A stretch of DNA of 64,000 nt, taken from positions 372,001 through 436,000 of the forward strand of contig OZ025797.1 of the NCBI GenBank assembly GCA_964019425.1, given 5' to 3'. This document shows positions 10,786-37,759 of the stretch, piece by piece. Each line of letters starts with the position of its first letter. The stretch's first letter is position 1. This DNA comes from Flectonema sp. DT1601. Lineage: Eukaryota. A program made the position numbers and the translations under genes. A model generated the notes under the pieces. The model was not told where the DNA came from. It saw nothing but the letters and a program-made list of their open reading frames with translations, and searched no databases.

Positions 10786-11322
10786 ATGATGATCTATCTG
10801 GTAGCTGTTGCTGCGGGAGTACTAACTTTCTACTATATTTGCCTCTCACCTCTCAATAATTTCCCTTACCAACACACAGTTGCGTACATGCCGAGAGTGA
10901 TTGAAGGTGGTGTTCCGTTTGTTGAGACTGTGGTAGGAATAATTGATGTAAATGTAGCTGGTATGACGTATTATAAATTCAACTCATCATTGATGAAGTC
11001 TGGGAACACAATAATCTTCGAGAGAGAATCCTCAAATAAATTTGATTCGAACGCAATAAAAGTTATCCACCAACCAGATAACCATTCTACTGAACAGATA
11101 GGACACCTACCACGTTCAACTAGTGCAATCTTATCGTCTCTTATTGATACCAAGACTATAAACATTGAAGGTTATATTAGTGTGATAACTTCGAATATGA
11201 AACAACTAACAATCACCATCACTGTGTACTCTCTATTGCAAAGTGTAGTTTGCGGGAAAACGAATTCCTTAATGCAATGTCCTGGATGGATTGCTGCTTC
11301 TCCAATGAATTGGAAGTGTTAA
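10786..11322 (+). CDS. Stand-alone HIRAN-domain protein with hydrophobic N-terminus
   Basis: VAGMTYY..GNTIIFERESSNKFDSNAIKV..IGHLPR..SAILS.LID matches the HIRAN pattern. First ATG is at 10786. Confidence 0.7.
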   Translation: MMIYLVAVAAGVLTFYYICLSPLNNFPYQHTVAYMPRVIEGGVPFVETVVGIIDVNVAGMTYYKFNSSLMKSGNTIIFERESSNKFDSNAIKVIHQPDNHSTEQIGHLPRSTSAILSSLIDTKTINIEGYISVITSNMKQLTITITVYSLLQSVVCGKTNSLMQCPGWIAASPMNWKC

Positions 11323-11637
11323 TTTCTCCAACGTGGTCTTTAGCCACGATTGACGTTTGATATTAAATAAATGTTTCCTCTGATCAGTGTGTCTCTGTAC
11401 TACTTCAGAACACACACTAAAGTTCAAAAATCTCTCACAAAACCCTAGCTCTTTTCTTGTCTTCTTATTTTACCGTCTCAAGAAAAAAAAAAAAAAAAAA
11501 AAACTGTAATTTAGAGCGTGCGTTGTATTCTAACACTGCTCACGATCATTATACAGTAATTTTTTAAGGTGACCAGCACAATGTAGTTGTTGTTATACTT
11601 AGAGATTTTTATTCAACTCAGGGATGTTAAATGTAAA

Positions 11638-14600
11638 ATGAAGAAGTCTGCTGGTAGGCTAGCACCCTTGTACCCAACTAAACAAATCTCACAAGATGGT
11701 GTAGAACTATTTCGTTCTTATGACTTTAGTGAAGATCGAATCAAGAGATCAAATCGAGTTGATTCTCGACCACGTCTTGCGATTGAATTAGAAAACTTCA
11801 TCGACACCGAAATGAGAAAGTTAGGAGTTCATAATTGGAGAGAACCACCAACAGTAAAACTAGTAACACCAGAGAGATTATCAGTCTTTGAGACCGCATT
11901 GCGACTCCTTGGTCTTCACTTCACTCCCTACACAGAACTGTTTGATAGTATTATAAGGGAGTACAAGACTTACACAGAACTTCACTGCAGTGGTACTAAG
12001 AAATTACAACTTACAATGAAGTACCTTGACCAAACATACGCTAGAAGTGTTGAGGCAATTCAACACGCATCCGAAGTAACTTCACAGCAATACCAACGAG
12101 CGACTGAAGAAGCAAAACAAAATGAAGAAAAACACAAACAAGAAGCGGAAACTCTGAGTGAAGATGTACAATTATGGAAAACCAAATCCAGAGAGAACCT
12201 AAACAGAGCTTTGTTCCTCCAAACCGTTGTGGATGAGCAGAAAGAAGAACTTCAGCGAGAGCGGCAACACTCATTAAATTTAGAAACAACCGTCAGAGAA
12301 CACAATATCAAACGTACGGAACTCGGTGAGCTTCAACAGGCCTTTGAATCAAAAAGATATTTACTGGCATTGGAAAGAGAGAAACGAGAATCAGCAGAAC
12401 AGCTGGCTGACGAACTAGAGTTGCAGCTGTCACAAGCTGGTAGCAGTATTAAGAAACTCCAGAGAGTCTCTAAAAAAGCAACTGAAAAGCTTCGAGTTAC
12501 TAACTCTGAAAACACCCACCTCTCCACACGTCTTAAGGATGCAGCCCATGAACTCTTACAGTGTCAGTCAGGTGATCCAGTAGTTAGTGGTTCAGGTATG
12601 GATTATTTATCTTTTCAATTTAAGACTCAAATGAATAAGTACAGCGTCGTCTGATGTTGTATAAATTATGTTTTGTTTCCATCGGATGGCCTTAGGTCAT
12701 CAGAATATAAATATTATCTCTGATGCGTCCTTCTTTCATCGTCTCCATTTTTTCATTTTCTTTTAACATTATTACGCTTTTTATTTCTTTCTTTTTATAC
12801 GACTTTCTACACTTTCTTTCTTTCTTTCTTCCTCCTAATGATGTGAGTAAATGATTAGTTGACCCCAAAAGGGTGTTTATTTATTTAAATTGGAGGTAAA
12901 CTGCCATGCCATGGTCCTTGTTACTACATTAGATGAATCTACACAGCGACCTTGCCAATAAATAAATAAAACCTTGCTGCTTTCTGTACTTTATTGATTT
13001 CGCAACCTAATATTGGTAAGAATCAGTGGGTACGTTTCACAGGAAAAGCAATTATGAGAGACAACCTGAGGAGGTTAGTATCGGAGGCTATGAACCTCCT
13101 GAAGATGGTGGGAGATGATGGGATCCCCGAGTATGAGAAAGAGAAAAGAGTAGCGAATCTCCTGATGGAGGTTATCCAGTTCGTGACGGGGTCGGAAGGT
13201 GGGAACCCTGAGATGAAAAGAAGAAGACCGGACACTCCCGAAGTGGGTGGTGGGACGGATGCGACCGCGACGGCAACCGAAGCGACGGCCCCAACCGCAG
13301 GCAGCAATCAACCGACAACAGAGGCGTCTACAGCTTCTAATCAACAGACAACATCGGCACCTAAACAATCAACCTTTTCGTTTCCGCTGCCTGTACCATC
13401 ATCAACATCGACTAAACAAACCACAAAGGGGAATGCTAAAGCAAGCTACCCGGAATGGCATGTACACGGCGCGTGGGCGGGCACTGTGTCTACAATCAAC
13501 TACGACGTAGCAGCGAATGCTACCAACAATCTCGCATCGGGTCTTGTTTTAGTACGCTCTAAACAGGACTGGGAAGCTCTCCGTCAGACAAAGAAGAGTG
13601 GTCGATGGGCTGCAATCAGCAAAGTACCGCTAACCAAAAGCACGGTGCCTGTCGCCATACCGGTGATCAAAAAGGGTGGTGTCTGCGAAATCAGACGAGT
13701 CTTCTACACGCATATCTGTGGTGAAGATTTTTCCAAAGCCACATCCGAAATTCAACATCCGACACCCGACCCCGTCTTGTTTGTTCAGGATTGGGGCAAA
13801 TCAAGTGAAAAAGATCTAACGATCAAAACAAAGGAACTGCTAAAAAAGAAAAAGATTAATGCAGCCCCTTTCAGTTACAAACGAAATGATTCACATTCCT
13901 CAATGGCTATTAGAATTCCCAGAAACCAAGTACACAAGATTCTGGAGTTTAACAATAACGACCCGGAGACCGACAAACCTAAGAATGTATTTGTCAGAAA
14001 CCCGAGCTGGTCAAATGGAAGCGATGTCTGGCCAACTCTTCAATTCAATAACGATCTTGGATTCTTGGCAGCAAAGTCCAAGACATCAATACTGGAAGGT
14101 TTCGAAGGTAAATTCTACCTGTGTAAGTTCAAAACCTGTTATGGACTCCGAGTTCATCCCGACTGCAACACTGAAGTGCGTATTAAGTTAAGCGCGTCAC
14201 TCAAACCTGCACTGCCTTCCGGTGACAGGTACATTATAAAATCAATGGCGATACGGAAATTCTCAACAGCGCAGATCAGCGACTTTATGAAGTCCTCTCA
14301 CAACTGGGAGCACACAGTGGTCGCATCGTTTAACAAAGGTGGAAGCACTACGATTGTGGCGATTTCAAACACGCAGCCTCCCAACTTCGTGAGCATAGGC
14401 ACCAATGAGTACCTTGTGATAAACAAGGAAGTTAAGAAAAGTGACAGAAAACCGCTAGGCCCAACCTACAACCCAGGCGACGCGGCTCAAAAACTGACAG
14501 GAACCCTGAAGAGACAGAAGACAGCTCCTCAACCACAACAACCAACTCAGCTACCACATCAGACGGCAGCAGCACCGACACCAGCGCCAGCACCCACACC

Positions 14601-17600
14601 AGCATCAGCTCCACCACCCACTGAATCTGCTGTTAAACAAGAAGGTGATAAGAACGGCGATGTTGAAATGGAAGATGATGACTCGGATTTTGACCTCAAC
14701 TGACTAGATGAAGATGACGATGATTTAAATCCGACCAACTCACTCACAGAAAAGAATACGGCTCGTGAACTGCTGCTTCAGGCAGGCGATGTCGAACGCA
14801 ACCCTGGCCCTGACGACTCCCTCATATCACTACTAAGCTGGAACTGTCGATCGATGGGGAACAAAGGTGCCTACATACACAAGCTGCTCAATGCCTATGC
14901 GCCTGACGTACTGTGCCTGCAAGAAACTTGGACAAAAGATGTAGTCTCACACACGGATTATTTTACCTATCGGAATGATAGGGCAACACGGGGTGGTGGG
15001 GTTATTACTATGGTGAAGAAATGCCACACTCAGCAGCGTTCTGATATCGTACTTCCGCCTCACTTAAATGATGTTGAAGTTGTAAAGGTCAACATAGGTG
15101 GAAAGATTGACATCTTAAATATTTATGCTCCCCCGGGATGCAAGATCAGAAAGTCAGATCTTCCAGTCTCAACGAAAGCAATCGTCGCGGGTGACTTTAA
15201 TGCCCATCATCCGGTGTGGTCATCAAAATCGACGCCAGCAGGTTCTACTCTACATGAATGGGCAGCACACAATGATCTACTGGTAGCCAACAAGATGGGG
15301 TCAATCACAAGGCCTTTTCCTAATATCCCGGGGGGCGGTACCTCGCCGGACGTAGTATTTTTTCAAAACTCGATGATTCTGGAAGAATTCTCTGTAATTA
15401 GAGAAGATAATAAACATGGATCTGATCACCGACCTCTCTACACCGTACTGGATCCCATGTGTCAACTTACACGTGCCACGATAGGTTCTAAGAAACGTGT
15501 GGTGTGGGACTTCAAGTCTACGGACTGGAACTGCTTTGGAAATATGCTCGATAAGAGAATTAGAAAATCGAAACTCTCCAACGATGCAACTGCGAATGCT
15601 AAGCTCTTTAACAACATACTGCATGAAGTGGCGGCTAAATTCATTCGTCGACGTGTCCTTTTCAAAGGGAAACGGAGACGAAAGTGGAAGACGTCAACAC
15701 CTGATTCTACCAAATCGAAGGGTGTCCACCTACGTGATCAACTTGACAAGGGTAACAACTTTGCCTTCGCGTTTAAGAAGATCAAAGAACTGCAACAAGA
15801 TGCTGGTAAAGATATCAGTGTCAACAACATCTCCGACTGCGACCTACCATCAGCATTCTTGGACCTGTTTGTCTCGAAATCGGAAATATTATCGCTAGAG
15901 GCCCCCGCACTCTCAGAAGGTGATAATGAAATAGATATTTGCTGTGATTTCACAATGGCTGAAATTAAAGCTGCGATTAAGAACCTGAAGACCCGCAAGG
16001 CTGCAGGACCTGATGGAGTTCACAATGAGATGATCAAAAACTTCACTCCGGCAACAGTGGAATACCTCCTGAGAATTATTAACACTTCCTGGAAGACTTC
16101 AAAAGTACCGTACCAATGGAAACAGGGACTAATCAAGCCTATGTTCAAGGCTGGAAAACCTCGAAATGAACTGAAGAGTTTCAGACCCATTACGCTCACA
16201 TCGGTTGTTGGGAAACTTGCGGAGAGGCTCGTGTATGACCGACTCATGCACTGGCTCACTAAACATTCGTCACTCAGCCCACTACAGGCTGGATTCAGAA
16301 GGGGGAGAAATACCTGCGAACAGATCACCGTTTTGGTAGATGCCGTCGTAAGGATGCACATGAAGAGAAAGAGATCGGTGTTCTTATCGTTTGATTTTAC
16401 TGCTGCGTTTGACAGGATCAACCATAAGATACTTTTATTAAAATTGGTAAAGATGGGTGTTCCGAATGTTATTATCAGATGGATCACAGACTTTCTTACA
16501 AACAGGAAGGTTAGAGTTGAAGCGAATGGTTATCTTAGTGAATTCCGTACTCTGGCTAAGGGGGTTCCACAGGGATCGATCCTGGGTCCTCTTCTTTATC
16601 TTATCTACGTTGATGACCTCTGCAAGATTTTGGAACTGGAGAAAGAAACAACGACGTCTGCTCTGTATGCGGATGATACAGCATGTGTAGTATCTGGACA
16701 TAACATGGAAGAAGCTCTTTCAAATGCTCAAATAATACTTGATAAAGTGGATCAATGGTGTTCTGACAACGACATGGCCCTGTCGGTCTCAAAGACCTGT
16801 GCTCTTAAGATGAAAGTCCGTACGAAGGATACGATTCTCAACGACACCTGCAATCGCGAATTACTATTTTCCAGATCTGTTGTGGAAAACGTTATCAAAA
16901 TGGACTATAGTGACATTGAAAAGAGTATCAACTTAAACTCTTCTAGACCCATGCTTCAAAGCGGCGAAACTATTCTCGAGGTTGATGGAACTCCGATCAA
17001 AACGCAAGACGAACTTGACAACGTGATGTTGCGGAATATTGTTCTCGAAAACAACGTGATGGTGGTGAAAGCCAGATTTAAAACCGCATTTCTGTTGCCA
17101 ATCGTGGACTCAGTGAAATACCTCGGAGTTCACATCGACGACAGACTCACTTTCCACAAACAGGTGGCTAAGATTCATGAAGAACTGAAAAAGGGAATAT
17201 CTCTGCTTCAATGCCTTCAACCGTATGATCTTGACTACAAAACGCTAAATATGGTCAAGAACCTTTACGTAACTGCGAGAATCTCTTATGCGCTCGATAG
17301 CTTTGGTTGGTTGATAAGCAACAGCGTTGATAGTATTGATTTCGAACTGAGGAAGGTTGCCAGGCTGGTTACTGGATGCAGCAGGTGCACACCGAGAGAA
17401 CTTCTACTGTGGGAAGCGGACATGCTTCCCTTTAAACGTCAGATCGAAAAGCAAACCAAGATAGCGTACTACAGGTATAAAGCCATGACTTGGATACCTA
17501 GTACCAACAGACTCGCCTCAACCCAAAGCTACTGGGCTGGCCTCCTTCCTGGCATTGACAGCCAGCGTGAAAGCCAGTGCCTTGTACAGCCTGACTCGAT

Positions 17601-20600
17601 GGAACCCTGGGTATCTCCGACAAACCTTAGGATTAGCAACGGCTGCGGATTTCCGAAGTCCGCGAACCCTGCGGTGGACAAAGAAAAATTCATGTCGTAC
17701 ATTGGAACGTTACCTCCTGTCGACATGTTAATCAACTGCGATGGCTCCTACTCTGCTTCCGGCGCGGCCGGAGCGGCTCATATTGCCAAGTCACGTAGCG
17801 GCCTTCGATCTGCTTACGCGTCTAGGCTCTATCAAGCTGACTGCAGCTACAGGGCTGAACAACATGCTCTGAAGAACGCGGCTAGACATCTGAGAACAGT
17901 GTTTAGCAAAGATCCTTCAATGAGATCTGTAAGGCTATTCACGGACTCAAAATCCCTTCTGGATGAACTGCTGGGTGGAAGGTGCAGACAGAGGAATACT
18001 GAGTCCCTCAAGATACTAGAATACCTGCGCATGTGTGAAATGAAAGTGCATTTGCAATTCATCCCCTCGCACATTGGAATCGAGTTTCACGATGAAGTTG
18101 ACGCGCTTGCAAAGGAAGCAGCGCACAACAAGAACATCCGACCTGTGCTAGTCAAAGGCACTTACTTCTCGCGATCATCACATGTTAAGCGCTGCATCAA
18201 AAAGGATCTGCTTAACGTGAGTGGCTACACCTGCTACAAACACCTCATCGGAGGCCGTTCCGTTAAATACCCTCCTGGGATGGAAAGAGCCGACGAGATA
18301 CGGATAGCGAACTTCCGGACAGGATGTCACCCGCTAATTCAGAACTGGCGCAAAAATATCGACTGCCCATTTTGTGGCGAACCGTCCTCACAGGTTCACC
18401 TGCTGCAGGGATGTCAATCTCCCAAACTCGACTCGGCCAGGTTCAAAATCCTGGGCTTCTCAACACTGACCGGCAAGTGGGATCGCGATCGGGAACTTAT
18501 TATTGCCAACGAAATTCCTAACCTTGAAGCCCTCTTCACTTTGGCGTGGCTTCCATCACTCGCGTTGATCATAAGGTGGATGGAACAGACATCTAACCTT
18601 AGACTTTGGAAATAAAGTAGGTGACATGTAGTCGCCAATATCAATTTGTTATTATTTTAGTATTTCCATCATTATCAATCATCTCCTGGTTGGGTGACTG
18701 CACATCACCTTCGGTGTTGTCGCAGTGTCTCATCCAACACTCCTGTCTCCTTCTTCTCCTATTCTCCTTTAAATTTCTCTTGAGGGCAGGCCTTCGGGCT
18801 GTTCAAGTGGTCTTTGACCACCGCTCTAGTTATATGCTCGATTCTTTGTTTTCCTTATCGATGGTAGGAATGGTAACCGAATTAGCTTCATGTGTCCAAT
18901 TTCAAGGACGCGTGACCATTTATTTTTTTCCGTTGCCGCTCTTCTTACGTCCTCAGGCGGAGCCTACCTATGTTTCCCGTGTTTTCCAATTTGTCAGACT
19001 TAAACCAAAAGAAAGTATAAAAGAAAGACAAAACATAGAAGTGAAAAGAACAAAAACAAAGAGTTTGGTAGCACAGACGAGTGTAACCAAAAAAAAAAAA
19101 AAACCTTGCCCATTCAAGACCATTTATTTTTTCCGTTGCCGCTCTTCTTACGTCCTCAGGCGGAGCCTACCTATGTTTCCCGTGTTTTCCAATTTGTCAG
19201 ACTTAAGTTAAAAAGAAAGTATTAAAGAAAGACAAAACATAGAAGTGAAAAGAACAAAAACAAAGAGTTTGGTAGCACAGACGAGTGTAACCAAAAAAAA
19301 AAAAAAAAAAAAAACCTTGCCCATTTTATAGCGCCCGTGGTGTAATGGTAGCAGCAGCAGTCAAATAAACAGGTCTGTAGCCAGGCCTTGTATGCGTGTC
19401 CAGGTTCGATTCCTGGCGGGTGCGATTTTACCACCCTTAAAAACATTATTTATTTATCTATTTTATGCCATAAACAAATTATTTCTGTGCACATTTCATC
19501 ACTCGCGGTAGTTTTTTTTTTTTTTTTTTTGACCTCTAATTTGCTGAGCAATAGTTGTTATATTCCTTGGTGATCCATCTATCGATCCCGACACTGTTCC
19601 AGAAACATGAATGAACAAGTCAATTCTGTTATAATTCTCTTCGATGGATCTGCATAAGAAGTTGTATTCGACACAGCACTCAATGATATGATAGTCGAAT
19701 CAGAAAAGAAACCTTCAGTGATAATGGTGTTGTGTATTTCAAACTAACTGACGACGTAATAAAACTATCTTGTGAAGTATTGTTGTCATCAGAAAGTGGT
19801 GATGCTCTTCACTTATACGATGCAAGAGATAGCAGTGATTATTTAACAGTTAACGTTTACGTTTCGAATAGGAATAGCGAACCTCTATCTTAGCCAATAT
19901 GGGATGTTCAACTATCATCAGTTTATAATAATAATAATATTGTTTGAAATCATCAACCAGTTCATCTCAGGGGGATTTGGGAACTCCAATTTCGCGTTTC
20001 TTTGAAAAAGTAGAGTGAAATGTGCACAGTCGTAATTTTAATTTATGGCATTAAATAAAATTAAACGGTTAAGTTGACATACTTTGTAATAATTATCATC
20101 TCATACAGTGATGCCCCCCCCCCCCCCCCCCCCCCCCCACTCGACGATACTTTCTCTGGTAGTTTATTTAAAGCATGCGATTTTGTGTGGACAGAATCCA
20201 GTTATAATGATTCATGTCTAATTTGTTGCGTGTTAACCCCCCTTGATTTATTTATCCAAATCCCCCCCCACTCGACGATATAATAGAACTGATCAGAGAT
20301 GAGTTTATCAACTTAAGCATCCCTAATTGATACTCATGTGTATTTTTTTTTCTTTTTTAATTAGCAAACCAAAAACAATAACCAAAAAAAAAAACTAAAT
20401 CAGGAACAAGTAAAACACTAACTCCTCGACCAAATTGGAAATGTGATGTACTAATTGATGTTTTATTAAAGGAAGTTGAAGAACCTGCCGGTAGAGAGTA
20501 TCAACAGTCGACATCTGCTAAAAAAGACAATCAACTACAAGTACCTGATGCTAATAATCCTACAGAAAAAGAGGGTATGGCAATGCATGCTGCTGATGAA

Positions 20601-22010
20601 ACAATTAATCAACAAGATAATAATAATAATAATAATGACAACGATGATGATGATGATGATGATGTCAATAAAAACATGGTTAGACTTAGGCTTCCATCAG
20701 GCGCCGGAGATGTTGAGTATTTTAATGAAAAGAGAAATCAAATAATATCGGAGCTGTCGGATAAATCATCTTCTGAGAATGTTAACTTTCTTATTCAGCT
20801 GATATTAAAACAACGAAAACTAATTGTGGACATTGATTATCAACTTTCTAAAACATATAAAATACAAGAATTCCTTAGATACGATTCCCACAGACCTGCT
20901 CAGGAACGCAAACAAACCGGAGGTCGTTTTTTCGTAGGTCTCGGAAACGGTCCAACCGTTGAAAAGTATTTAAAATTTTCCGGAAAAATCTCAAATAAAC
21001 AAATGTCAAAAAAAGCAACGGATACCTGGCTTAGGAATTTCTGGTCATCAAAACAATTGGCTGATAAAAGAATGCAAGAGAAGAATAGAGTTAGAGTGGA
21101 ATTTCATGAGTTTTTATATGGTTACCTCGTTGCAGCAGCAGGACTTCAGGCAGTCGTTTGTGAAACTGCTTATAATGTTTTAGATTCTTGTAAGAGATAC
21201 CGACATAATCCAGAGTGTGCTCTCTTCCTACAAATCCAGACGAATAAACTTAGTGATGAAGCTTTCTACTACACAAAAGACCTTCTCGCTAAACTTGAAC
21301 ACTGGTTTGTGAAACTTGAGACTACAGAGTTAGCTTCAAAGTCAGAGAAAACAGTAGAAGCGAGACTCTTGAAATCTCAAACTACTGGATTTGTCTCAAA
21401 AAAATACGTCTTTCAAGAATTGCCATCAATATTTCCCTGCAAGACTAGCGATGATTTGTTGAAAATAAAATTGTGTTTCCAGGAGGAGAATCCGGGAAAA
21501 CAGATTTGCTATTCCAAACTATTCGACAGCTCTGGTCAATCAATGTGTATCTCAATAATTCGTGAACAGGTAATAAGAGAGTTACAAGATTATATTAAAG
21601 ATATCCAAGAAGCACTAATAGACGCTTCTGATGACGGCTGTAGTATCGTAGCATTTAGGGCTCAGATGGTATTACAAGAAGTTGATCCGTGTAAGTCATC
21701 AATTGGTGTTGAGAAAATGATGTCTTCTGGTCTCAATGTAACTGAAGATGATTTATCAAAAGATGATATCATGACGGGTTTCGTTAATATTTCTTCATTC
21801 TGTACATCTTTACTAAAAGGGTTTACAACAAGAGCAACAAACCCTGAAGATGTTCAAGGTATGTTATCAAAACGAGGACAGACTAGAACACTCGGACAGG
21901 CTGGAAGACAACGTCTTCGATCAATGCGATCAATGACGTCTCTTCTTCATGAAAAAAGAAACGATTCTCTTCCTTCATTTCCTGACCAACAACTGACTCC
22001 ACGAGGTTAG
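11638..22010 (+). CDS. TSNAXIP1: Translin-associated factor X-interacting protein 1-like, join(11638..12595,20404..22010)
   Basis: Exon 1 has a TSNAXIP1_N-like segment (RLSVFETALRLLGLHFTPYTELFDSIIREY) and a coiled coil. Donor CAG|GTATG at 12596 and acceptor CTAAATCAG| at 20403 join in phase 1 into an open frame (GTSKTLTPRPNW...) continuous with the 20577 ORF, which has FFVGLGNGPTVEKYLKFSGKISNKQMSK. Additional small exons inside the intron cannot be excluded. Confidence 0.75.
12981..12996 (+). other. Relict 3' portion of the euglenozoan spliced leader at the retroelement 5' end
   Basis: TTTCTGTACTTTATTG equals the last 16 nt of the diplonemid/Leishmania-type SL exon (...CAGTTTCTGTACTTTATTG, recalled from memory). 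It lies 3 nt inside the TSD. Confidence 0.85.
13054..14703 (+). CDS. Retrotransposon ORF1 (549 aa, no recognisable CCHC knuckle)
   Basis: First ATG at 13054 follows TTTCACAG. Low-complexity Thr/Ala/Pro flanks and an acidic end. Stop is TGA followed by CTAG. Confidence 0.8.
   Translation: MRDNLRRLVSEAMNLLKMVGDDGIPEYEKEKRVANLLMEVIQFVTGSEGGNPEMKRRRPDTPEVGGGTDATATATEATAPTAGSNQPTTEASTASNQQTTSAPKQSTFSFPLPVPSSTSTKQTTKGNAKASYPEWHVHGAWAGTVSTINYDVAANATNNLASGLVLVRSKQDWEALRQTKKSGRWAAISKVPLTKSTVPVAIPVIKKGGVCEIRRVFYTHICGEDFSKATSEIQHPTPDPVLFVQDWGKSSEKDLTIKTKELLKKKKINAAPFSYKRNDSHSSMAIRIPRNQVHKILEFNNNDPETDKPKNVFVRNPSWSNGSDVWPTLQFNNDLGFLAAKSKTSILEGFEGKFYLCKFKTCYGLRVHPDCNTEVRIKLSASLKPALPSGDRYIIKSMAIRKFSTAQISDFMKSSHNWEHTVVASFNKGGSTTIVAISNTQPPNFVSIGTNEYLVINKEVKKSDRKPLGPTYNPGDAAQKLTGTLKRQKTAPQPQQPTQLPHQTAAAPTPAPAPTPASAPPPTESAVKQEGDKNGDVEMEDDDSDFDLN
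14761..14811 (+). other. 2A-like StopGo (ribosome-skipping) peptide ARELLLQAGDVERNPG|P
   Basis: Exact D(V/I)ExNPGP consensus at 14788-14811 with the typical upstream LLLxAG. In frame with both ORF1 and ORF2. Confidence 0.92.
14809..18615 (+). CDS. Retrotransposon ORF2 polyprotein: APE endonuclease, reverse transcriptase, RNase H, C-terminal Zn knuckle; predicted to start at the 2A Pro
   Basis: APE: SWNCRS (upstream of Met 14854), LCLQET, NIYAPP, GDFNAHH, SPD, SDH. RT: KAAGPDG, FRPITLTS, QAGFR, DFTAAFD, GVPQGSILGP, YADD, KYLGV. RNase H: CDGS, AEQHAL, TDSKS, IPSHIG..DEVDALAK. Zn knuckle: CPFC..H...C. Confidence 0.95.
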   Translation, partial: PDDSLISLLSWNCRSMGNKGAYIHKLLNAYAPDVLCLQETWTKDVVSHTDYFTYRNDRATRGGGVITMVKKCHTQQRSDIVLPPHLNDVEVVKVNIGGKIDILNIYAPPGCKIRKSDLPVSTKAIVAGDFNAHHPVWSSKSTPAGSTLHEWAAHNDLLVANKMGSITRPFPNIPGGGTSPDVVFFQNSMILEEFSVIREDNKHGSDHRPLYTVLDPMCQLTRATIGSKKRVVWDFKSTDWNCFGNMLDKRIRKSKLSNDATANAKLFNNILHEVAAKFIRRRVLFKGKRRRKWKTSTPDSTKSKGVHLRDQLDKGNNFAFAFKKIKELQQDAGKDISVNNISDCDLPSAFLDLFVSKSEILSLEAPALSEGDNEIDICCDFTMAEIKAAIKNLKTRKAAGPDGVHNEMIKNFTPATVEYLLRIINTSWKTSKVPYQWKQGLIKPMFKAGKPRNELKSFRPITLTSVVGKLAERLVYDRLMHWLTKHSSLSPLQAGFRRGRNTCEQITVLVDAVVRMHMKRKRSVFLSFDFTAAFDRINHKILLLKLVKMGVPNVIIRWITDFLTNRKVRVEANGYLSEFRTLAKGVPQGSILGPLLYLIYVDDLCKILELEKETTTSALYADDTACVVSGHNMEEALSNAQIILDKVDQWCSDNDMALSVSKTCALKMKVRTKDTILNDTCNRELLFSRSVVENVIKMDYSDIEKSINLNSSRPMLQSGETILEVDGTPIKTQDELDNVMLRNIVLENNVMVVKARFKTAFLLPIVDSVKYLGVHIDDRLTFHKQVAKIHEELKKGISLLQCLQPYDLDYKTLNMVKNLYVTARISYALDSFGWLISNSVDSIDFELRKVARLVTGCSRCTPRELLLWEADMLPFKRQIEKQTKIAYYRYKAMTWIPSTNRLASTQSYWAGLLPGIDSQRESQCLVQPDSMEPWVSPTNLRISNGCGFPKSANPAVDKEKFMSYIGTLPPVDMLINCDGSYSASGAAGAAHIAKSRSGLRSAYASRLYQADCSYRAEQHALKNAARHLRTVFSKDPSMRSVRLFTDSKSLLDELLGGRCRQRNTESLKILEYLRMCEMKVHLQFIPSHIGIEFHDEVDALAKEAAHNKNIRPVLVKGTYFSRSSHVKRCIKKDLLNVSGYTCYKHLIGGRSVKYPPGMERADEIRIANFRTGCHPLIQNWRKNIDCPFCGEPSSQVHLLQGCQSPKLDSARFKILGFSTLTGKWDRDRELIIANEIPNLEALFTLAWLPSLALIIRWMEQTSNLRLWK
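19115..19313 (+). mobile_element. Second, 5'-truncated copy of the retrotransposon 3' end with its own poly(A)
   Basis: Repeats 18914-19103 with a few differences (TTAAACCAAAAG vs TTAAGTTAAAAG; GTATAAAAG vs GTATTAAAG) and a longer poly(A). Flanked by ACCTTGCCCATT at 19103-19114 and 19314-19325. Confidence 0.8.
19331..19424 (+). tRNA. Atypical tRNA-like gene (94 nt; anticodon not assignable)
   Basis: 7-bp acceptor stem GCGCCCG/CGGGTGC, A box TGGTGTAATGG, perfect T arm CCAGG-TTCGATT-CCTGG (B box) and TTTT just downstream. The central part does not form a canonical anticodon arm. Confidence 0.6.
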
Positions 22011-25337: not shown

Positions 25338-25877
25338 TGATCTTTTATTTATTTATTTTAAATGTTAAAAAGACTGGTTGTAATGATATGAAACTCCAGT
25401 CAACTCAAGAAAGAGTAACAAAAAAAAAAACTATGAAAAAGAAAAACTTGTTATCTTGTCTTCTGTGTAACAAAAGATTTCTACCCAATTAGTGATTGTA
25501 AGATTCTTGTTAGTTTTGCTTTTTATTTTTTATAACTGAAAACGAACAAAATATGAATAAACTGCTGACATCTTTTTTTTAATTTCTTTTTTTTATTGTT
25601 GTTCATGCAGCTGTCACACTGATTGGTGTTCCCTACCCTTAGCCTATTTGTATCGTTTCCTGCGATTGCTGTTTTTATTGTTCAACAAGTAAACCTATTT
25701 GTAATACTGAATGGAAATGGATTAATAAGATTAACAAGTATTTATTTCTTCAATCAAGGAAACAACAAAACAACAAAGAAGAAATTGTAGCATGCGACTT
25801 GTAGTTATTTCATATCAATTTTATTTTCTTTTGTTGTGTAGGTGATTACAACTCCGAAAAGTAATTAAGAAAATAAA

Positions 25878-27596
25878 ATGCGACCTCTGCTTTGGTTATT
25901 AGTATTCGCATCACTGATCTCTTCCTCAAATGCAGTTCAGATTGAGACTAGAGTTTTTACTGCGGAGTTTTCAGCGAGTGATGAAAACTTTAATATGTAT
26001 GTTGAGCTTCAGAACAGTGGGGACGTAATCTTTGCGGGATTGACTGGCCAAGTCTTCGGAACACGCGATTCAACTGTGACAGTGAGCACTGACCCATCAC
26101 TGCTTTCACCGTCGATAAACCCGCTTCAAATAAGTAGAATTCTTATTCGGCCTACTCTCGAGGGTCGCTCAGAAGACGGTGACGGACTAACTATTCGTAG
26201 TACAATAGAACTATTAACACCAGGTGTGAGACAAGGTAGAATTCCATTCACATGTTATTACCACAATCAGGGAGTACTGAATCCTGCAGTACTTCCAACT
26301 GTTATCATTGACTACTTCCATTCAGCAACTGATTCATTTGCTGAATGTTTTTCTCCATACACAATAACGGAAACTGCATCATTAACTGTAACGAAATCCT
26401 TAACTGTTCCACTTGATTATGCCCTTCCAGAGTTTGCTGTTGACGAAGGCTCAGCACTCGAAGGGTCGCAGTCGGAACCTGCGGTCGCTTCCTTCGCTGA
26501 TGGCGGAGTTGTTGTTTGTTGGACTTCTCAAAATCATGAGTTAATGAGAAGATATGAATTTAATATATTTTGCTTAATGTTTGATGTGACAGGAGCAGAG
26601 CAAGGATCTAAATTTCAAATTAACTCCAACACTTTGGGAACACAGCAGTCTCCTTCAGTAGCTGTCCTTCAAGGGAATTCTATTGTTGTTGTATGGAACA
26701 GTGACCACCTGTCGGGTCACAACGTTATTTCTCGTCAGTTTGACAACGGAGTTGCGAATGCTGAAGGAGAAGTGATTCACAGTGCCCATCTCGCTTCAGG
26801 AAAGAAGACATTGCCTGATGTCGCCAGCATCCCTTCAACTAATTATTTTGTTATCTGTTGGCAATCTTTTGGCAGTGACGGTTCATATTTCGGAGTTTAT
26901 GCTGTTCGTCATTCTGTAGGTGAGAGTAGCGTTCCGTTTCTGGTAAACACCGCGACGCAGTGGGATCAGACGGATGCAAAGGTTGCTTGCTTCACTGACG
27001 GTGGGTATGTAATTACTTGGGGGAGTTATACTACTGGCACTGCTAGTGACATATTCATGAAGAGATACAACGCATTGGATGTTGCTCAAACTCCTTCGGA
27101 TGAAAAGGTAAACTCGGATGACGCGAATACCGAACGTGCTCCAGCGATTGCGAGATTCTCTGACAACACATTCATGATTGTGTGGGTTAGGATTACTACT
27201 ACTGATTCGACATTATGGGCAGCAACATTTGATGCAACAGGTTCTCAGGTTGTAACTGAATTCCGTGTTGACACCGATGTCGGTCTTCGAGTTCGCAACT
27301 GTGACATCGTAACTTTGAATGATGACACAGTTCTTATTACTTGGGGAGCATCAAACGCTGCTGGTACTAGTTTCGGAACATATGCTCGTCGCTTCACTCG
27401 AATTGTTAGTGTTTTGCCTGCGGAATACCAGAATCAGTTTCTTATTAATGAAAACACTGCAGGAGAGAAACTAAAACCCAAAGTTGAGAAGTTTGGTCCT
27501 TGGGGATTCTTCATCACGTGGCAAACTACTGATCCGAATTCTGAAAGTGACGTTACTGGAAAATGGTACCCCGAATATAAACCAATTCTTTTTTAG
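25878..27596 (+). CDS. Secreted repeat-domain protein, paralog 1 (572 aa)
   Basis: Signal peptide MRPLLWLLVFASLISSSNA. C-terminal repeats of type F.VN...Q..P.VA...G..VV.W. Confidence 0.85.
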   Translation: MRPLLWLLVFASLISSSNAVQIETRVFTAEFSASDENFNMYVELQNSGDVIFAGLTGQVFGTRDSTVTVSTDPSLLSPSINPLQISRILIRPTLEGRSEDGDGLTIRSTIELLTPGVRQGRIPFTCYYHNQGVLNPAVLPTVIIDYFHSATDSFAECFSPYTITETASLTVTKSLTVPLDYALPEFAVDEGSALEGSQSEPAVASFADGGVVVCWTSQNHELMRRYEFNIFCLMFDVTGAEQGSKFQINSNTLGTQQSPSVAVLQGNSIVVVWNSDHLSGHNVISRQFDNGVANAEGEVIHSAHLASGKKTLPDVASIPSTNYFVICWQSFGSDGSYFGVYAVRHSVGESSVPFLVNTATQWDQTDAKVACFTDGGYVITWGSYTTGTASDIFMKRYNALDVAQTPSDEKVNSDDANTERAPAIARFSDNTFMIVWVRITTTDSTLWAATFDATGSQVVTEFRVDTDVGLRVRNCDIVTLNDDTVLITWGASNAAGTSFGTYARRFTRIVSVLPAEYQNQFLINENTAGEKLKPKVEKFGPWGFFITWQTTDPNSESDVTGKWYPEYKPILF

Positions 27597-28651
27597 TTTC
27601 TTTTTTCAATTTATTTCTTATTGATTTTCAAGAACATAATTGAAACGAGGAGTCATTCATTCAGTTATCTCAAGGCGAATAGTGTTTTTATAATGGTGGT
27701 TAAGATTTTTTCTTTTTTTTGAATTCTTTTTTTCCCCCCAACTGTATAAAGTCGACCACCTTTTATGCTATTGAGTAAACTAGCTGGATTTGCCTCTTGA
27801 CGGATATCCTAGAGAACTGTACTTTAAGGTCTGTTTCAGTTCTACTTGCGCTGCTTCCCATGTTCCCCTTACCTCTGCTTAGTATTATTTTTTGTTGCTG
27901 TTGTTGTTGTTGTTGTTGTTGTTGTTTTTCTGGGTGATGCTTTCACTTGATTAATCTCTCTTTTTATATTGTAAGAAAACTTGTCTTTTGTTTGCAATGT
28001 AAAAAAAAAAAAAACGAGAAATAATAAAACGAGTGTGTCGCTTAAGCATCTTCAATTTGCGATGCTTGTTATTAAAGTTGAGAGTAAGTGTAAATTTGTT
28101 TTCGTTGTTGTTTTCGCTTCGGCTGATACTACATTGCTGAGAAAACTACTATTTTATTTTGTGGTATAACCCCTACCAACAATCGATTTTTTTTTTTCTT
28201 TGCGAAAAGTAAAGAATCCTTTAGACAAATACAAATATCTTTTTTTTCGATATTAATTTTGTTTTATAAATACCTAAAATTGTTACTGTTTTTACATAAT
28301 CGAAATATCAACTTCCCCCTCTGCCCTTGTGACAGTACTTTTATTGTTTTCCGTATTCTTCCCAGATAGATCTTTTCATATCTTATCAAATTACCCCCCA
28401 GTCCAATTAATATAATTGTTAAGGAATTATTTATTTATTGACAAACTATGATGAAATCAACTCTCTGCTGTAATCCATTGTGCCCTGGTTTTGGTTTCTC
28501 AAGGCTCGCGGTCGATTCCGTACTGCACTGAATGACAAGACATTCTTTTACGATATTTGCAGAGTGTTTAACTTTAGTCAGCTGCGTCATAAATTACTAA
28601 TTGTTTATATTTATTAACTTTTCATGCAATGCAACCTCAAATAAAGTATCA

Positions 28652-28962
28652 GTTCACCATGGGTTCACCATGGGTTCACTATGGGTTCACCATGGGTTCA
28701 CCATGGGTTCACTATGGGTTCACCATGGGTTCACCATGGGTTCACCATGGGTTCACCATGGGTTCACCATGGGTTCACCATGGGTTCACCATGGGTTCAC
28801 CATGGGTTCACTATGGGTTCACCATGGGTTCACCATGGGTTCACCATGGGTTCACCATGGGTTCACCATGGGTTCACTATGGGTTCACCATGGGTTCACC
28901 ATGGGTTCACCATGGGTTCACCATGGGTTCACCATGGGTTCACCATGGGTTCACCATGGGTT
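28652..28962. repeat. 11-bp minisatellite (CCATGGGTTCA) x ~28
   Basis: Tandem units read directly; four CTATGGGTTCA variants. Confidence 0.97.
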
Positions 28963-30573
28963 AACTGAGTTACCTCAACAGTGTTGGTGGGAGTATGGAT
29001 TACTCTCGAAAAAGGTGTTGTTGAAATCTTTTTCTTTCTTTTCTCGTCCCTTATAATTCTTTGGCAGTGAAAGCTTCACGTCACAAGATAGAGCTTAATG
29101 TAAGTGTTGCTGCAGTTGGTAGTTTCTGTTTTAGTGTCGTACGGCTGGTGCGGCTTTTCCGTTTCCTTTCCCTTCAGTTTCACGGACTGGTGCGATATGT
29201 CTCGATAAAAGTTTAGTTCTGTTCTTCTTTAACCTTTGTACTGTGGGGGTTCCCCCACTTGTGCGTGCTACGAACTTTGTTTAATATGATCCAATTCGTG
29301 CAGTTGTATTTTACAAATTCAAACATTCAACCCTACGTGTATGTTACGTTCCGGTAAATGATATCTTTTTTCGCCACAAGGCGTGGGACGTTTAACCTGT
29401 AGCACGTGGCCTTTCCGAATCCCCTTTCTCGACATTTATGGGATTTTATCGATACCAACTGTTGGTATTTACAATCTAGTAACCAGGTTTGGCCGAACCT
29501 ATTTTAGTTTTAGCCAGTTCGGGTTCCTTAATATTGATTACAATATCAAGTTGCTCTTCCTTTTTATTTTCTAATTTTTTTTTTATTCGGTCTTGCAGAC
29601 GTGATGTGGTGTTCTTCACTGAGTGGTCATCACGAACTTTTCAAAAAAAAAAAAAAAAAAGAACTTTCTACCAGTTTTTTTTGAGAAAGAAGAAATTAGT
29701 TTGGATTGCTTTCACGCAAAGAGACTAACCCAGTCGCTCCACCAGGTCCTCGGGTATTCCTTGTTGCTGCACGTCGAGACAACGATCGAGAGAAATTATT
29801 TCGCATTCGTGTATTTTAGAATTCTGAGAGTCTAAGAACAGAGTTTCCATTTTATATTACGAAAAAAAAAAAAAAAAAAACAGCAACCAGCAAACAAAAA
29901 ACAAAAATGATTAAATCATATGAGTCTCACCGAAAGTCAGACTAAACAATTAGTCTAGACTCATCGTTTAGTTTGCCTTTAATCCAACTGAGAGGTTTAC
30001 TCTCCATCATGTATTTTGTTAATAAATAAAATTAAAAAACAAACCAAGCAAGCAAGAAATCGAAAAGTCAGTATTAACTACTGCAATCGAAGATTCTCCG
30101 AGAGTAAGTCTTTTATTAGGACCATCTCTTTGTGATTACTTTCTACTAATCAAAAAAGAAAAAGTGATATGAATTATCCGTTTATTGAGATAAGAGCAGG
30201 CGATACACTCTCCTGTCGAATTCAAGTCTCTCTGGACCCATGATAATATGATTGGGATTATGTGTGTGATAGCGTCCTCAAAGTAATGAGCCTGCAATCA
30301 ATTCTTTTTAATGAGAACATAAATTATTAAATTCCAACTCAAATATTTCTGAAAACACAAATGTTTATTTTATATTAATTTTATTGTTGGAATTAAAGGG
30401 TTTTCTCATGAAGTTTTTATTATTATTTCATTCGTGTTGTCGTTCTCTCTTTTATTGTTCTTTTCTAGACGATAGCGAGCTTCACTCGCAATTTATTTTA
30501 TAATGTTTTCCCACAACCCTTTTCTGTTTTGTTTATATTTCTGTCAGAGTTGTTGTCAGCCCAATTTAATTAA

Positions 30574-33715: not shown

Positions 33716-34087
33716 GTCATACTTCTCACAGAACACTTTGACGATGTATCACTTCTTAGCATTGCGGCTGGGTTGCTGACATCTTTTTTTAATTTCTTTT
33801 TTTTTATTGTTGTTCATGCAGCTGTCACACTGATTGGTGTTCTCTACCCTTAGCCTATTTGTATCGTTTCCTGCGATTGCTGTTTTTATTGTTCAACAAG
33901 TAAACCTATTTGTAATACTGAATGGAAATGGATTAATAAGATTAACAAGTATTTATTTCTTCAATCAAGAAAACAACAAAACAACAAAGAAGAAATTGTA
34001 GCATGCGACTTGTAGTTATTTCATATCAATTTTATTTTATTTTGTTGTGTAGTTGATTACAACTCCGAAAATAATTAAGAAAATAAA

Positions 34088-35941
34088 ATGCGACCTCTGC
34101 TTTGGTTATTAGTATTCGCATCACTGATCTCTTCCTCAAATGCGCTTCAGATTGAGCTTACAGTTAATTCCGCATGGCCTTCAGCAGAGCGAATTAAAAT
34201 TCGTGCTACGGTTCAGAACGGTGCTTCGCAAGATCTAGGACAAGCTACTTTTACTGGGTCAGGCAATCCAACTGTGATATTGAACTCAGGATCACAGCTT
34301 CCACCGTCGACAAATCCGCGCGATATAACTAAAATCCTGTTCTTTTTTACTGCCGGCAGAACGACAGATGGTCCCAGAGTAATTATTGATAGTACAATAC
34401 AACTATTAACACCAGGTGTGGGACAAGGTAGAATTCCATTCACATGTTATACCTGGGCAGGGGGAAGCCTGAATTCTGGATTGCTTCCAAATGCTTACTT
34501 ACAAGACCTCGCTACAGGACGTGATACATATCCTGAGTGTTATCCATACGTAACGGGAACTGAATCCTTAACCGAGACATTAACTAAATCATTTACGGTT
34601 GGATCATTAACTGAAACACTATCTGTATCGAAATCCTTAACTAAATCATCAACTGAAACATTAACTGCAACGAAATCCTTAACTAAATCATCAACTGAAA
34701 CGCTAACTGTATCAAAATCCTTAACTAAGTCATCAACTGAAACATTAACTGTTCCACTTGATTATGCCCTTCCAGAGTTTGCTGTTGACGAAGGCTCAGC
34801 ACTCGAAGGGTCGCAGTCAGAACCTGCGGTCGCTTCCTTCGCTGATGGCGGAGTTGTTGTTTGTTGGACTTCTCAAAATCGTGAGTTAGTCAGAAGATAT
34901 GAATTTAATATATTTTGCTTAATGTTTGATGTGACAGGAGCAGAGCAAGGATCTAAATTTCAAATTAACTCCAACAATTTGGGAACACAGCAGTCTCCTT
35001 CAGTAGCTGTCCTTCAAGGGAATTCTATTGTTGTTGTATGGAACGGTGACCACCTGTTGGGTCACAACGTTATTTCTCGTCAGTTTGACAACGGAGTTGC
35101 GAATGCTGAAGGAGAAGTGATTCACAGTGCCCATCTCGCTTCAGGAAAGAAGACATTGCCTGATGTCGCCAGCATCCCTTCAACTAATTATTTTGTTATC
35201 TGTTGGCAATCTTTTGGCAGTGACGGTTCATATTTCGGAGTTTATGCTGTTCGTCATTCTGTAGGTGAGAGTAGCGTTCCGTTTCTGGTAAACACCGCGA
35301 CGCAGTGGGATCAGACGGATGCAAAGGTTGCTTGCTTCACTGACGGTGGGTATGTAATTACTTGGGGGAGTTATACTACTGGCACTGCTAGTGACATATT
35401 CATGAAGAGATACAACGCATTGGATGTTGCTCAAACTCCTTCGGATGAAAAGGTAAACTCGGATGACGCGAATACCGAACGTGCTCCAGCGATTGCGAGA
35501 TTCTCTGACAACACATTCATGATTGTGTGGGTTAGGATTACTACTACTGATTCGACATTATGGGCAGCAACATTTGATGCAACAGGTTCTCAGGTTGTAA
35601 CTGAATTCCGTGTTGACACCGATGTCGGTCTTCGAGTTCGCAACTGTGACATCGTAACTTTGAATGATGACACAGTTCTTATTACTTGGGGAGCATCAAA
35701 CGCTGCTGGTACTAGTTTCGGAACATATGCTCGTCGCTTCACTCGAATTGTTAGTGTTTTGCCTGCGGAATACCAGAATCAGTTTCTTATTAATGAAAAC
35801 ACTGCAGGAGAGAAACTAAAACCCAAAGTTGAGAAGTTTGGTCCTTGGGGATTCTTCATCACGTGGCAAACTACTGATCCGAATTCTGCAAGTGACATTA
35901 CTGGAAAATGGTACCCCGAATATAAACCAATTCTTTTTTAG
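34088..35941 (+). CDS. Secreted repeat-domain protein, paralog 2 (617 aa)
   Basis: Same signal peptide and near-identical C-terminal ~395 aa as paralog 1. Different N-terminal domain and a 14-aa Thr/Ser linker repeat (TETLTVSKSLTKSS). Confidence 0.85.
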   Translation: MRPLLWLLVFASLISSSNALQIELTVNSAWPSAERIKIRATVQNGASQDLGQATFTGSGNPTVILNSGSQLPPSTNPRDITKILFFFTAGRTTDGPRVIIDSTIQLLTPGVGQGRIPFTCYTWAGGSLNSGLLPNAYLQDLATGRDTYPECYPYVTGTESLTETLTKSFTVGSLTETLSVSKSLTKSSTETLTATKSLTKSSTETLTVSKSLTKSSTETLTVPLDYALPEFAVDEGSALEGSQSEPAVASFADGGVVVCWTSQNRELVRRYEFNIFCLMFDVTGAEQGSKFQINSNNLGTQQSPSVAVLQGNSIVVVWNGDHLLGHNVISRQFDNGVANAEGEVIHSAHLASGKKTLPDVASIPSTNYFVICWQSFGSDGSYFGVYAVRHSVGESSVPFLVNTATQWDQTDAKVACFTDGGYVITWGSYTTGTASDIFMKRYNALDVAQTPSDEKVNSDDANTERAPAIARFSDNTFMIVWVRITTTDSTLWAATFDATGSQVVTEFRVDTDVGLRVRNCDIVTLNDDTVLITWGASNAAGTSFGTYARRFTRIVSVLPAEYQNQFLINENTAGEKLKPKVEKFGPWGFFITWQTTDPNSASDITGKWYPEYKPILF

Positions 35942-36369: not shown

Positions 36370-36703
36370 TTGTTTGTTTATTTGTGCCATAGGTTTCAGC
36401 ATCAGTATTGGCTGAGGCTATAAAATGGTCGACCCCGGATTTCCTACCGTATTATTAGTGTTCTCTTTGGAGGATCTACGTAACTAATATTCGGTGATTG
36501 TTTAGATCCTCTAATTGATTCATAATGATCATTTCTTTATGATAACTCAATAATAATATTGATTACACTAGTTAGTTATCTGTGAATGAGAAGTTTATAT
36601 TGTTGATATGTTGTGTTGCATCACTAATCTTTCATATCTTACAGGCTTCACACACTACGATGTGGCGCCCTGAACGGGATTGCAAGAAGATACCAGTTAG
36701 CAC
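36370..36703 (+). pseudogene. Duplicated upstream region and first codons of the PTP gene
   Basis: Near-identical to about 42308-42641. Encodes MWRPERDCKKIPVST, then breaks off. Confidence 0.8.
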
Positions 36704-36804
36704 TTTGAAACTCACGAAGAATTTTATTATTATTATTTTACTTTTAATCCAACTGGGAGGTTTACTCTCCGACATGTATTTTGTTAATAAATAAATAAAA
36801 TTCA

Positions 36805-37360
36805 AAACAAACAAACAAACAAACAAACAAACAAACAAACAAACAAACAAACAAACAAACAAACAAACAAACAAACAAACAAACAAACAAACAAACAAAC
36901 AAACAAACAAACAAACAAACAAACAAACAAACAAACAAACAAACAAACAAACAAACAAACAAACAAACAAACAAACAAACAAACAAACAAACAAACAAAC
37001 AAACAAACAAACAAACAAACAAACAAACAAACAAACAAACAAACAAACAAACAAACAAACAAACAAACAAACAAACAAACAAACAAACAAACAAACAAAC
37101 AAACAAACAAACAAACAAACAAACAAACAAACAAACAAACAAACAAACAAACAAACAAACAAACAAACAAACAAACAAACAAACAAACAAACAAACAAAC
37201 AAACAAACAAACAAACAAACAAACAAACAAACAAACAAACAAACAAACAAACAAACAAACAAACAAACAAACAAACAAACAAACAAACAAACAAACAAAC
37301 AAACAAACAAACAAACAAACAAACAAACAAACAAACAAACAAACAAACAAACAAACAAAC
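36805..37360. repeat. Perfect (AAAC)n microsatellite, ~139 units
   Basis: Uninterrupted tetranucleotide array of 556 bp. Confidence 0.98.
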
Positions 37361-37759
37361 AAGAAATCGAAAAGTCAGTATTAACTACTGCAATCGAAGA
37401 TTCTCCGAGAGTAAGTCTTTTATTAGGACCATCTCTTTGTGATTACTTTCTACTAATCAAAAAAAGAAAAAGTGATATGAATGATCCGTTTATTGAGATA
37501 AGAGCAGGCGATACACTCTCCTGTCGGATTCAAGTCTCTCTGGACCCATGATAATATGATTGGGATTATGTGTGCGATAGCGTCCTCAAAGTAATGAACC
37601 TGCAATCAATTCTTTTTAATGAGAACACAAATTATTAAATTCCAACTCAAATATTTCTGAAAACACAAATGTTTATTTTATATTAATTTTATTGTTGGAA
37701 TTAAAGGGTTTTCTCATGAAGTTTTTATTATTATTCGTTCTGTCCGGTTCCGTATGTTA

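Follow-up and report, generated by a model that had tools for sequence, protein, structure and literature searches.

A 64,000-nucleotide stretch of the Flectonema sp. DT1601 genome (GenBank assembly GCA_964019425.1, contig OZ025797.1, positions 372,001 to 436,000 of the forward strand; hereafter the window) carries a full-length, multi-copy non-long terminal repeat (non-LTR) retrotransposon of the APE-RT-RNase H type, with two open reading frames (ORFs), a spliced-leader remnant and a poly(A) tail. ORF1 and ORF2 lie in one frame, separated by a TGA codon in the leaky context UGA_CUAG, and a 2A (StopGo) motif precedes the first in-frame ATG of ORF2. The ORF2 protein (ORF2p) is probably made by ribosomes that read through this stop and are then predicted to skip, StopGo-fashion, at NPG|P, as had been proposed in an earlier reading of the window made from its letters alone (the sequence-only reading).

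ORF1 (13054..14703, + strand) runs from an ATG at 13054 to the TGA at 14701-14703 and encodes a 549-aa protein (ORF1p). The stop lies within AAC-TGA-CTAG (14698..14707, +), preceded by a conserved Asn codon. Past the TGA the frame stays open for 1303 codons (14704-18612), up to a TAA at 18613, with its first ATG at 14854. Its first 35 codons (14704..14808, +) form an ATG-free extension that is acidic, contains the sequence PTNSLTE, continues into the 2A helix and ends at the 2A Gly; the 2A core, DVERNPG|P, occupies 14788..14811 (+). A readthrough product is thus predicted to add 36 residues to ORF1p (the recoded stop plus 35), and an ORF2p starting at the 2A Pro to be 1268 aa long. The WN dipeptide of APE motif I (14839-14844) also lies upstream of the first Met. 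The positions given in the sequence-only reading (14698-14707, the 2A core, WN and Met14854), and the open frame lacking an ATG before Met14854, were found to be correct; the two protein sizes were reproduced as predictions from sequence. Its description of UGA-CUAG as a leaky context in alphaviruses, AQP4, LDHB and MDH1 agrees with PMC5868278 (here and below, statements on published systems apply to the available parts of the papers cited).

The context is not one shared by stops in general. The 23 long + strand frames of the window end in TGA (7), TAG (8) or TAA (8), and none of the six other TGA-ended frames has C at position +4; within the element, CTAG occurs at a frequency of 0.0016. A hand estimate, uncorrected for the fact that the locus was chosen for the motif, puts the chance of TGA-CTAG at one given stop at about 5e-4 and that of TGA-CTA at about 3e-3. 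Stops in all three frames (TGA, TAG, TGA) are found inside 11 nt (14701-14711), and out-of-frame ATGs at 14708, 14714 and 14720 open frames of just 2-6 codons. The first in-frame near-cognate codon after the stop is codon 17. Some other ways of passing the stop were considered and rejected: selenocysteine insertion, as neither a selenocysteine insertion sequence (SECIS) nor a tRNA-Sec match was found in 11000-21000; frameshifting from the +1 ATGs, inspection finding no slippery site into the ORF2 frame before the TAA at 14726; stimulation by a 3' stem-loop, unsupported by folding against shuffled sequences; and a host-wide reassignment of TGA, since other window frames end in TGA, some of them with another stop within 0-10 codons.

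The TGA is carried unchanged by contigs from two other studies, indicating that it is real DNA and not an assembly error. A 151-nt contig from the X4 run spans 14634-14784 and an X2 contig spans 14554-14704, each with 0 differences (depths of 2 and 3). The X2 contig stops one base past the TGA; the X4 contig, identical to the window subfamily, covers all of CTAG. These contigs are evidence for the TGA as real DNA, not for its conservation in diverged copies. Contigs from runs X1 and X3 cover the 3' half only, and short X3/X4 matches at 14563-14618 were dropped as low-complexity.

Conservation was assessed among 36 ORF1-family proteins (five members of one cluster being unlisted). In all 28 that extend into the tail, the last residue is the same Asn, within SDFDLN in 26 and within YRN and YSN in the two from Flectonema neradi; the other eight are truncated or frameshifted earlier. 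The 26 SDFDLN proteins belong to three subfamilies about 80% identical, two of which are 90-92% identical to each other. The two F. neradi ORF1s are about 50% identical (49-52%) to the window ORF1, and their tails are otherwise unalignable yet share the terminal Asn; that this residue is kept in such divergent tails suggests that the last sense codon of ORF1 is under selection. At the protein level, then, neither the three subfamilies nor the second species departs from this stop position. No fused ORF1-ORF2 protein was present among 8000 scored candidates of 962-2745 aa, a weak test. The sequence-only reading had held that a sense codon at this position in other copies would make the TGA a copy-specific mutation or a sequencing error; the 28 relatives, and for what it is worth the lack of fusions, point the other way. 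The fixation of TGA-CTAG as a whole, which it had put forward as a test, was borne out for the stop position, at the protein level; the CTAG context can be read only in the DNA of the window subfamily. Family DNA was not found in searches with ORF1 against metagenome and viral contigs, with the ORF2 N-terminus against viral contigs, or with the 2A-APE pattern against prokaryote genomes.

Between the stop and Met14854 the sequence looks like one in coding use. Extension codons are conserved with F. neradi P0032 and with P0181 of subfamily B, a relative about 93% identical in ORF2. In a gapless comparison anchored on NPGP, codons 5-16 after the stop are identical to P0032 at six of 12 positions (binomial P 3e-5). 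As these codons precede the first near-cognate codon, in this subfamily they can be reached by readthrough only. Barring the recent loss of an upstream ATG, constraint thus seems to act on codons accessible only to readthrough ribosomes. Over codons 16-50 the window and subfamily B share 32 of 35 residues. Differences between runs X1-X4 and the window comprise 26 synonymous and 7 replacement codon changes among those listed (40 of 89 difference rows plus one more, with 37 coding positions used).

A start at Met14854 would leave the endonuclease incomplete: it removes positions 1-19 of the PF03372 profile and lowers the score from 54.2 to 45.5 bits. Residue N14 is required for the endonuclease activity of L1. 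In a profile alignment to 8uw3, the Asn of WN aligns with N14 of human L1 ORF2p, and it too is removed by the Met14854 start. The ORF2 cluster has 101 members, of which 15 are listed and nine of these reach the N-terminus. Six of the nine, with 99.3-99.6% identity to the window, have their called start at Met14854; five of the six are full length.

The window 2A reads GDVERNPGP (G at 14785) and has a helical leader, matching the canonical (G)D(V/I)ExNPGP core. NPGP is retained in P0181, P0032 and P0037, and the core is kept in subfamily B; the F. neradi motif, GNVEVNPGP, shows a D-to-N change. The motif lies directly before the APE domain of an APE-RT-RNase H ORF2, as in the Ingi/L1Tc clade. 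The 2A of L1Tc is active and, placed in its native context, reduces the amount of downstream product (PMC5814959).

The following scheme is the likeliest reading of these data. One trans-spliced, polyadenylated RNA would carry both ORFs, and most ribosomes would stop at the TGA and release the 549-aa ORF1p. A few percent would place a near-cognate residue at the UGA; in human UGA_CUAG contexts, readthrough reaches 1.3-17% from 21 nt of context, independently of structure (PMC5868278), figures that are human, not diplonemid. Ribosomes that read through would translate 35 more codons, release ORF1p+36 at the 2A Gly and resume at the Pro, yielding a free 1268-aa APE-RT-RNase H protein with the first strand of its endonuclease intact. 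Where skipping is incomplete, a Gag-Pol-like fusion would persist in some amount. A high ORF1p:ORF2p ratio would be set by the stop, with the 2A standing in for the protease of readthrough-type LTR elements.

A number of observations weigh against readthrough. The junction offers no 3' stimulatory structure and folds worse than shuffled sequences (z +2.3 and +1.5); given that UGA_CUAG acts from 21 nt of context in human cells, the missing structure is compatible with readthrough but not supportive of it. Within the leader, an ACG at 14758 stands in a good initiation context and CTG codons occur at 14770 and 14773. CTAG is seen in this subfamily alone. Moreover, related ORF2s carry a Met or a called start 21-31 residues ahead of the 2A Pro: the other three of the nine N-terminal records, from subfamily B, are called from M at codon 15, P0032, an ORF called on a transcript, has a Met at codon 5, and in the distant P0037 family one lies at codon 6-7. 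The subfamily-B M could be TTG or GTG, the same caller having written TTG as M in P0005 (compare window position 12994); the P0032 Met is probably a true ATG. A Met in the relatives' leader would amount to the classic Met-leader-2A layout, for which readthrough is unneeded. In F. neradi, the ORF1s (DN1157, DN4749) and the closest ORF2s (DN2455, DN572) are four separate Trinity components, and no ORF1 fragment of 30-266 aa was found (the search yielded 4 proteins among 1340 candidates, none of them F. neradi sequences; lengths of 267-300 aa fell outside it). Highly active 2As were found in 43 of 580 RT-element contigs (7.4%), most RT-element 2As being mid-range in activity (10.64898/2026.09.24.754024), and the gag-stop-pol arrangement of Tca2 gave no readthrough in a reporter (PMC7175516).

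Several of these points are what would be seen if ribosomes terminated at the TGA and restarted within the 35-codon leader, at an ATG in the relatives and here at the ACG, at either CTG or independently of AUG, with the 2A merely trimming or dampening the product as in L1Tc. Such a route, which we judge unlikely though well worth keeping in mind, fits both the unstructured junction and the Met or called start that subfamily B, F. neradi and the P0037 family have ahead of their 2A, and is the one described for SART1 and mammalian L1, AUG-independent in the latter (PMC5972666, PMC5009743). It leaves unexplained the PTxSLxE conservation upstream of all near-cognate codons in this subfamily and the exact UGA_CUAG context, and the three out-of-frame ATGs would trap scanning ribosomes in their short frames. 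The proposal that the ORF1:ORF2 ratio is set by readthrough and 2A is partly backed, by the fixed stop, the conserved pre-2A codons and the motif-I Asn ahead of Met14854; the added statement that this occurs without reinitiation is not established, in view of the starts before the 2A in relatives and the different Trinity components of the F. neradi ORFs.

Euglenozoan polycistrons are normally resolved by trans-splicing, and ORF2 might likewise be translated from a separate mRNA, with the AG of CTAG (14706-14707) or a site close to it as the acceptor. The host trans-splices (PMC10161547), the TAG is a canonical YAG acceptor directly after the stop, and F. neradi ORF1 and ORF2 were assembled separately. 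In this subfamily, however, such an mRNA would have only out-of-frame ATGs before Met14854, so that the endonuclease made from it would miss its first strand and the Asn of motif I, and the separate Trinity components are equally accounted for by fragmented assembly of multi-copy repeats. The AG is preceded by a weak pyrimidine tract (10 T of 30; in 15 of 16 host ORFs, 13-23 T precede the best AG), a comparison that favours the host ORFs since the best of many AGs was taken for each; its force is blunted, to the detriment of the readthrough reading, by the best AG upstream of ORF1 being weak as well (11 T). On balance a separate ORF2 mRNA appears improbable. Harder still to believe, in our view, is a defective subfamily whose sole ORF2p, if there is any, starts at Met14854, is truncated and has a dead endonuclease; its mobility would then depend on subfamily B acting in trans, and the context of the stop would be a coincidence. 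Subfamily B, with its earlier called start, does coexist in the same contig collection; but no lesion is seen in the 2A, in APE motif I or anywhere in the 1303-codon frame, the near-identity to subfamily B over codons 16-50 has been kept, and several near-identical full-length copies exist. A last possibility is that the element has a single ORF, in which the TGA arose as a nonsense mutation of this copy or as a sequencing error, or that the host decodes TGA as an amino acid; fused ORF1-2A-ORF2 proteins are known in other organisms (PMC13405545). The common stop of 28 relatives, the TGA in two other runs, the other TGA-ended frames of the window and, weakly, the lack of fusions leave this reading largely refuted, and we assign it next to no probability.

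Readthrough followed by StopGo may have a counterpart elsewhere. A scan for the 2A-APE junction pattern gave 55 matches in 53 loci, none from the window's family by translated junction. An upstream stop is visible in 49 of the loci, a Met-free leader in 17 and an in-frame upstream ORF of at least 200 codons in three. The latter, L022, L044 (2956-3027) and L049 (1422-1493), belong to an unrelated long interspersed element (LINE) family and have the order long ORF, TGA, 14-residue Met-free leader, 2A. L022 and L044 are near-identical, and L049, frameshifted downstream, is 83% identical over 45 codons round the junction; the shared TGA is followed by AC, not CTAG. An APE domain lies downstream in L044, and the upstream ORF of L049 gave sub-threshold OTU matches only. 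In Symbiodinium, an OTU domain is fused in frame to ORF2p (PMC13405545), so that the stop may not be universal in elements of the L044/L049 type. We regard the parallel as a lead, not proof. Two further loci were rejected as stop-2A cases, L031 because the locus is degenerate and the ORF upstream occupies another frame, and L006 because its TGA-CTAA follows a 4-codon frame and a Met is present. As a separate observation, viral-collection contigs (L001, L002/L038 and L003, the last from a 68-kb contig) hold GD(V/I)ExNPGP inside very long ORFs, with about 500-830 residues before it and 500-1000 after.

The remainder of the element conforms to an APE-type non-LTR retrotransposon: APE then RT in ORF2, poly(A) 3' ends, a 5'-truncated copy and many copies, with the spliced-leader remnant and the poly(A) flanking both ORFs. 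The window carries long uninterrupted ORFs on the same strand. ORF1p has helices at the N-terminus, alpha/beta domains centrally and an acidic low-complexity tail; it matched 0 Pfam families and had no usable Atlas match. An AF2 model from a four-sequence alignment (mean pLDDT 44 overall, about 80-89 for residues 241-290) predicts an RRM/ACT-like beta-alpha-beta-beta-alpha-beta domain at residues 236-321 (13759..14016, +). With this low-confidence model the domain scored a middling VIA Z of 6.3-7.5, RRM, ACT and KH chains being tied, and Foldseek with the ORF1 model returned nothing at E<=1e-3. In ORF2 the APE domain occupies 14833..15429 (+; PF03372 from profile position 1, PF14529), the RT domain 16162..16824 (+; PF00078, E 4.4e-34) and the RNase H domain 17725..18123 (+; PF00075, E 7.9e-7, above cut-off). 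A C-x2-C-x7-H-x4-C (CCHC-type) motif, read off the translation, lies near the C-terminus (18364..18414, +), and its H1232 is almost invariant in alignment A3. The best Protein Data Bank (PDB) match to ORF2 in a profile search is L1 ORF2p (E 2.5e-68, profile alignment to 8uw3); the APE domain queried against PDB as a single sequence gave no match. Atlas neighbours of ORF2 are APE-RT-RNase H clusters. The only named relatives of ORF1 are transcripts of the diplonemid F. neradi, and those closest to ORF2 likewise (42-47% identity); taken with the long same-strand ORFs of the window, these relatives point to a diplonemid as host. A second APE-RT family, 31% identical (P0037, P0200, P0201, P0207), was noticed among ENA records; its Met lies about 30 residues ahead of a non-canonical GVHPNPGP.

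The 5' end of the element (12981..12995, +) is an exact 15-nt match to the 3' part of the euglenozoan spliced leader. The mini-exon end printed in PMC11613528, which is kinetoplastid, matches once in the window, versus 0.02 expected, and P0005, P0006 and P0012 imply the same junction. In the window and in P0012 alike, the element begins with this 3' part at almost one point, in P0012 right after the poly(A) of the preceding copy. The start resembles a relict leader of a trans-spliced template. No AG precedes the remnant in the window, so re-splicing of new copies is a puzzle. At the other end, the full-length copy closes with a 3' untranslated region (UTR) and an A15 tail (18616..19103, +), and is followed by a second, 5'-truncated copy of the 3' end (19104..19325, +; element sequence 19118-19292, A22 tail) in an 11-bp direct repeat, CCTTGCCCATT. 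Upstream, two CCTTGC target-site motifs with an A-rich tract between them (12950..12977, +) may represent an older minimal insertion together with a target-site duplication (TSD), which for the full copy appears to be 6 bp only. CCTTGC adjoins each of three A-rich tails (12950-12977, 19104-19114 and 19315-19325), 16 nt upstream of a tRNA-like gene (19331..19424, +; Rfam RF00005, 31.7 bits; fold z -2.2). Acceptor and T arms of the latter are intact, with a 33-nt insert in the anticodon region, and ARAGORN called no tRNA at 19331-19424; an intron-containing tRNA, a pseudogene and a Pol III promoter element are the candidates. Repeated insertion at one site suggests sequence- or Pol III-gene-directed targeting by an APE element. 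Full and 5'-truncated copies lie in head-to-tail arrays, as gene calls show: P0012, P0026 and P0036 cross from the 3' UTR/poly(A) of one copy into ORF1 or mid-ORF2 of the next, and in P0012 and P0036 the 3' end of a full copy is joined directly to the next copy.

Elsewhere in the window, three paralogous host genes (25869-27596, 34079-35941 and 39449-41269) each encode a signal peptide, an N-terminal domain that varies, Thr/Ser repeats in varying number and a repeat-rich C-terminal domain common to all three. Tandem arrays of 11-nt and AAAC-type units lie between host genes, at 28581-29031 and 36654-37450.

Gammaretroviruses express gag-stop-pol by readthrough. In its working the window element would resemble a 2A element of the Ingi type to which a retrovirus-like throttle has been added. 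A 2A precedes APE in L1Tc/Ingi and in several clades from animals, mostly without an ORF1 (PMC3708506), and L1Tc/Ingi further share with the window element a euglenozoan host, the APE-RT-RNase H order, poly(A) and TSD (PMC3708506, PMC5814959, PMC12278014). In these sources, however, L1Tc/Ingi are single-ORF elements lacking ORF1, with a Pr77 promoter/ribozyme and unspliced RNA, whereas the window element combines a 549-aa ORF1 and its fixed stop with a spliced-leader remnant, and has an ATG-free stretch ahead of its 2A; a ribozyme search over 11000-21000 gave no match at E<=1. The label L1Tc/Ingi-type, used in the sequence-only reading, thus holds for the 2A before APE and is otherwise a matter of resemblance. 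In 2A-bearing CR1/L2/Rex1/Crack elements and the ORF1p-2A-ORF2p fusions of Cordylochernes, the 2A likewise parts upstream functions from ORF2p (PMC3708506, PMC13405545); the available text describes no leaky stop in them and most lack ORF1, and a stopless fusion of the Cordylochernes type would not throttle ORF2p in the same way. The identical 7-nt UGA_CUAG context occurs in AQP4, OPRL1, OPRK1, MAPK10, MDH1, LDHB, VDR and alphaviruses, where it yields a C-terminal extension or a polyprotein, without a 2A in the portion of the source at hand (PMC5868278). Cardioviruses also use tandem recoding to set a structural:enzymatic ratio, but they are RNA viruses in which the order is reversed, StopGo preceding a -1 frameshift that acts as the throttle (PMC5009743). 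Gag-stop-pol retroelements such as Candida Tca2 have an in-frame stop between structural and enzymatic ORFs, but are LTR elements with a protease, and readthrough of Tca2 is not confirmed (PMC7175516). SART1 and mammalian L1 resemble the window element as bicistronic LINE RNAs needing little ORF2p; unlike it, they reinitiate at or near an AUG, with no 2A in the accounts available (PMC5972666, PMC10275272, PMC5009743). The Diplonema papillatum genome paper, in its available part, leaves elements uncharacterised (PMC10161547). In the literature covered, with most subscription journals, Repbase reports and supplements outside its scope, no non-LTR element combining readthrough with a 2A and no diplonemid readthrough was found; the supplements of the two 2A preprints, outside this scope, could list this 2A peptide.

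The stop-2A junction is a real, family-wide feature, with a mechanism that is plausible and apparently undescribed. How the second protein is made from a bicistronic LINE RNA is a long-standing question, and the routes reviewed are of the reinitiation type; a cassette of about 110 nt would be a compact and different route to ORF2p. In a broader reading, for and against which we see about equal weight, the two-step cassette, a UGA-CUAG throttle with protease-free release by StopGo, solves the problem of ORF1:ORF2 stoichiometry, and the order stop-then-2A evolved separately in one or more unrelated LINE families (L044/L049 being one); alongside reinitiation and internal initiation, this would be a third way to ORF2p, recurrent and so far undescribed, and the signal a natural case of readthrough in a diplonemid. 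The cassette would be the natural counterpart of laboratory readthrough-plus-StopGo reporters and a possible ratio-setting tool for diplonemids and kinetoplastids. Should readthrough fail, the locus would still define a LINE family that has two ORFs, carries a spliced leader, is apparently site-specific and expresses ORF2 without an AUG. Odon et al. associated the 2A with loss of ORF1; readthrough, if true, would explain why a 2A is retained in an element still carrying ORF1, and would extend the UGA-CUAG signal to euglenozoans.

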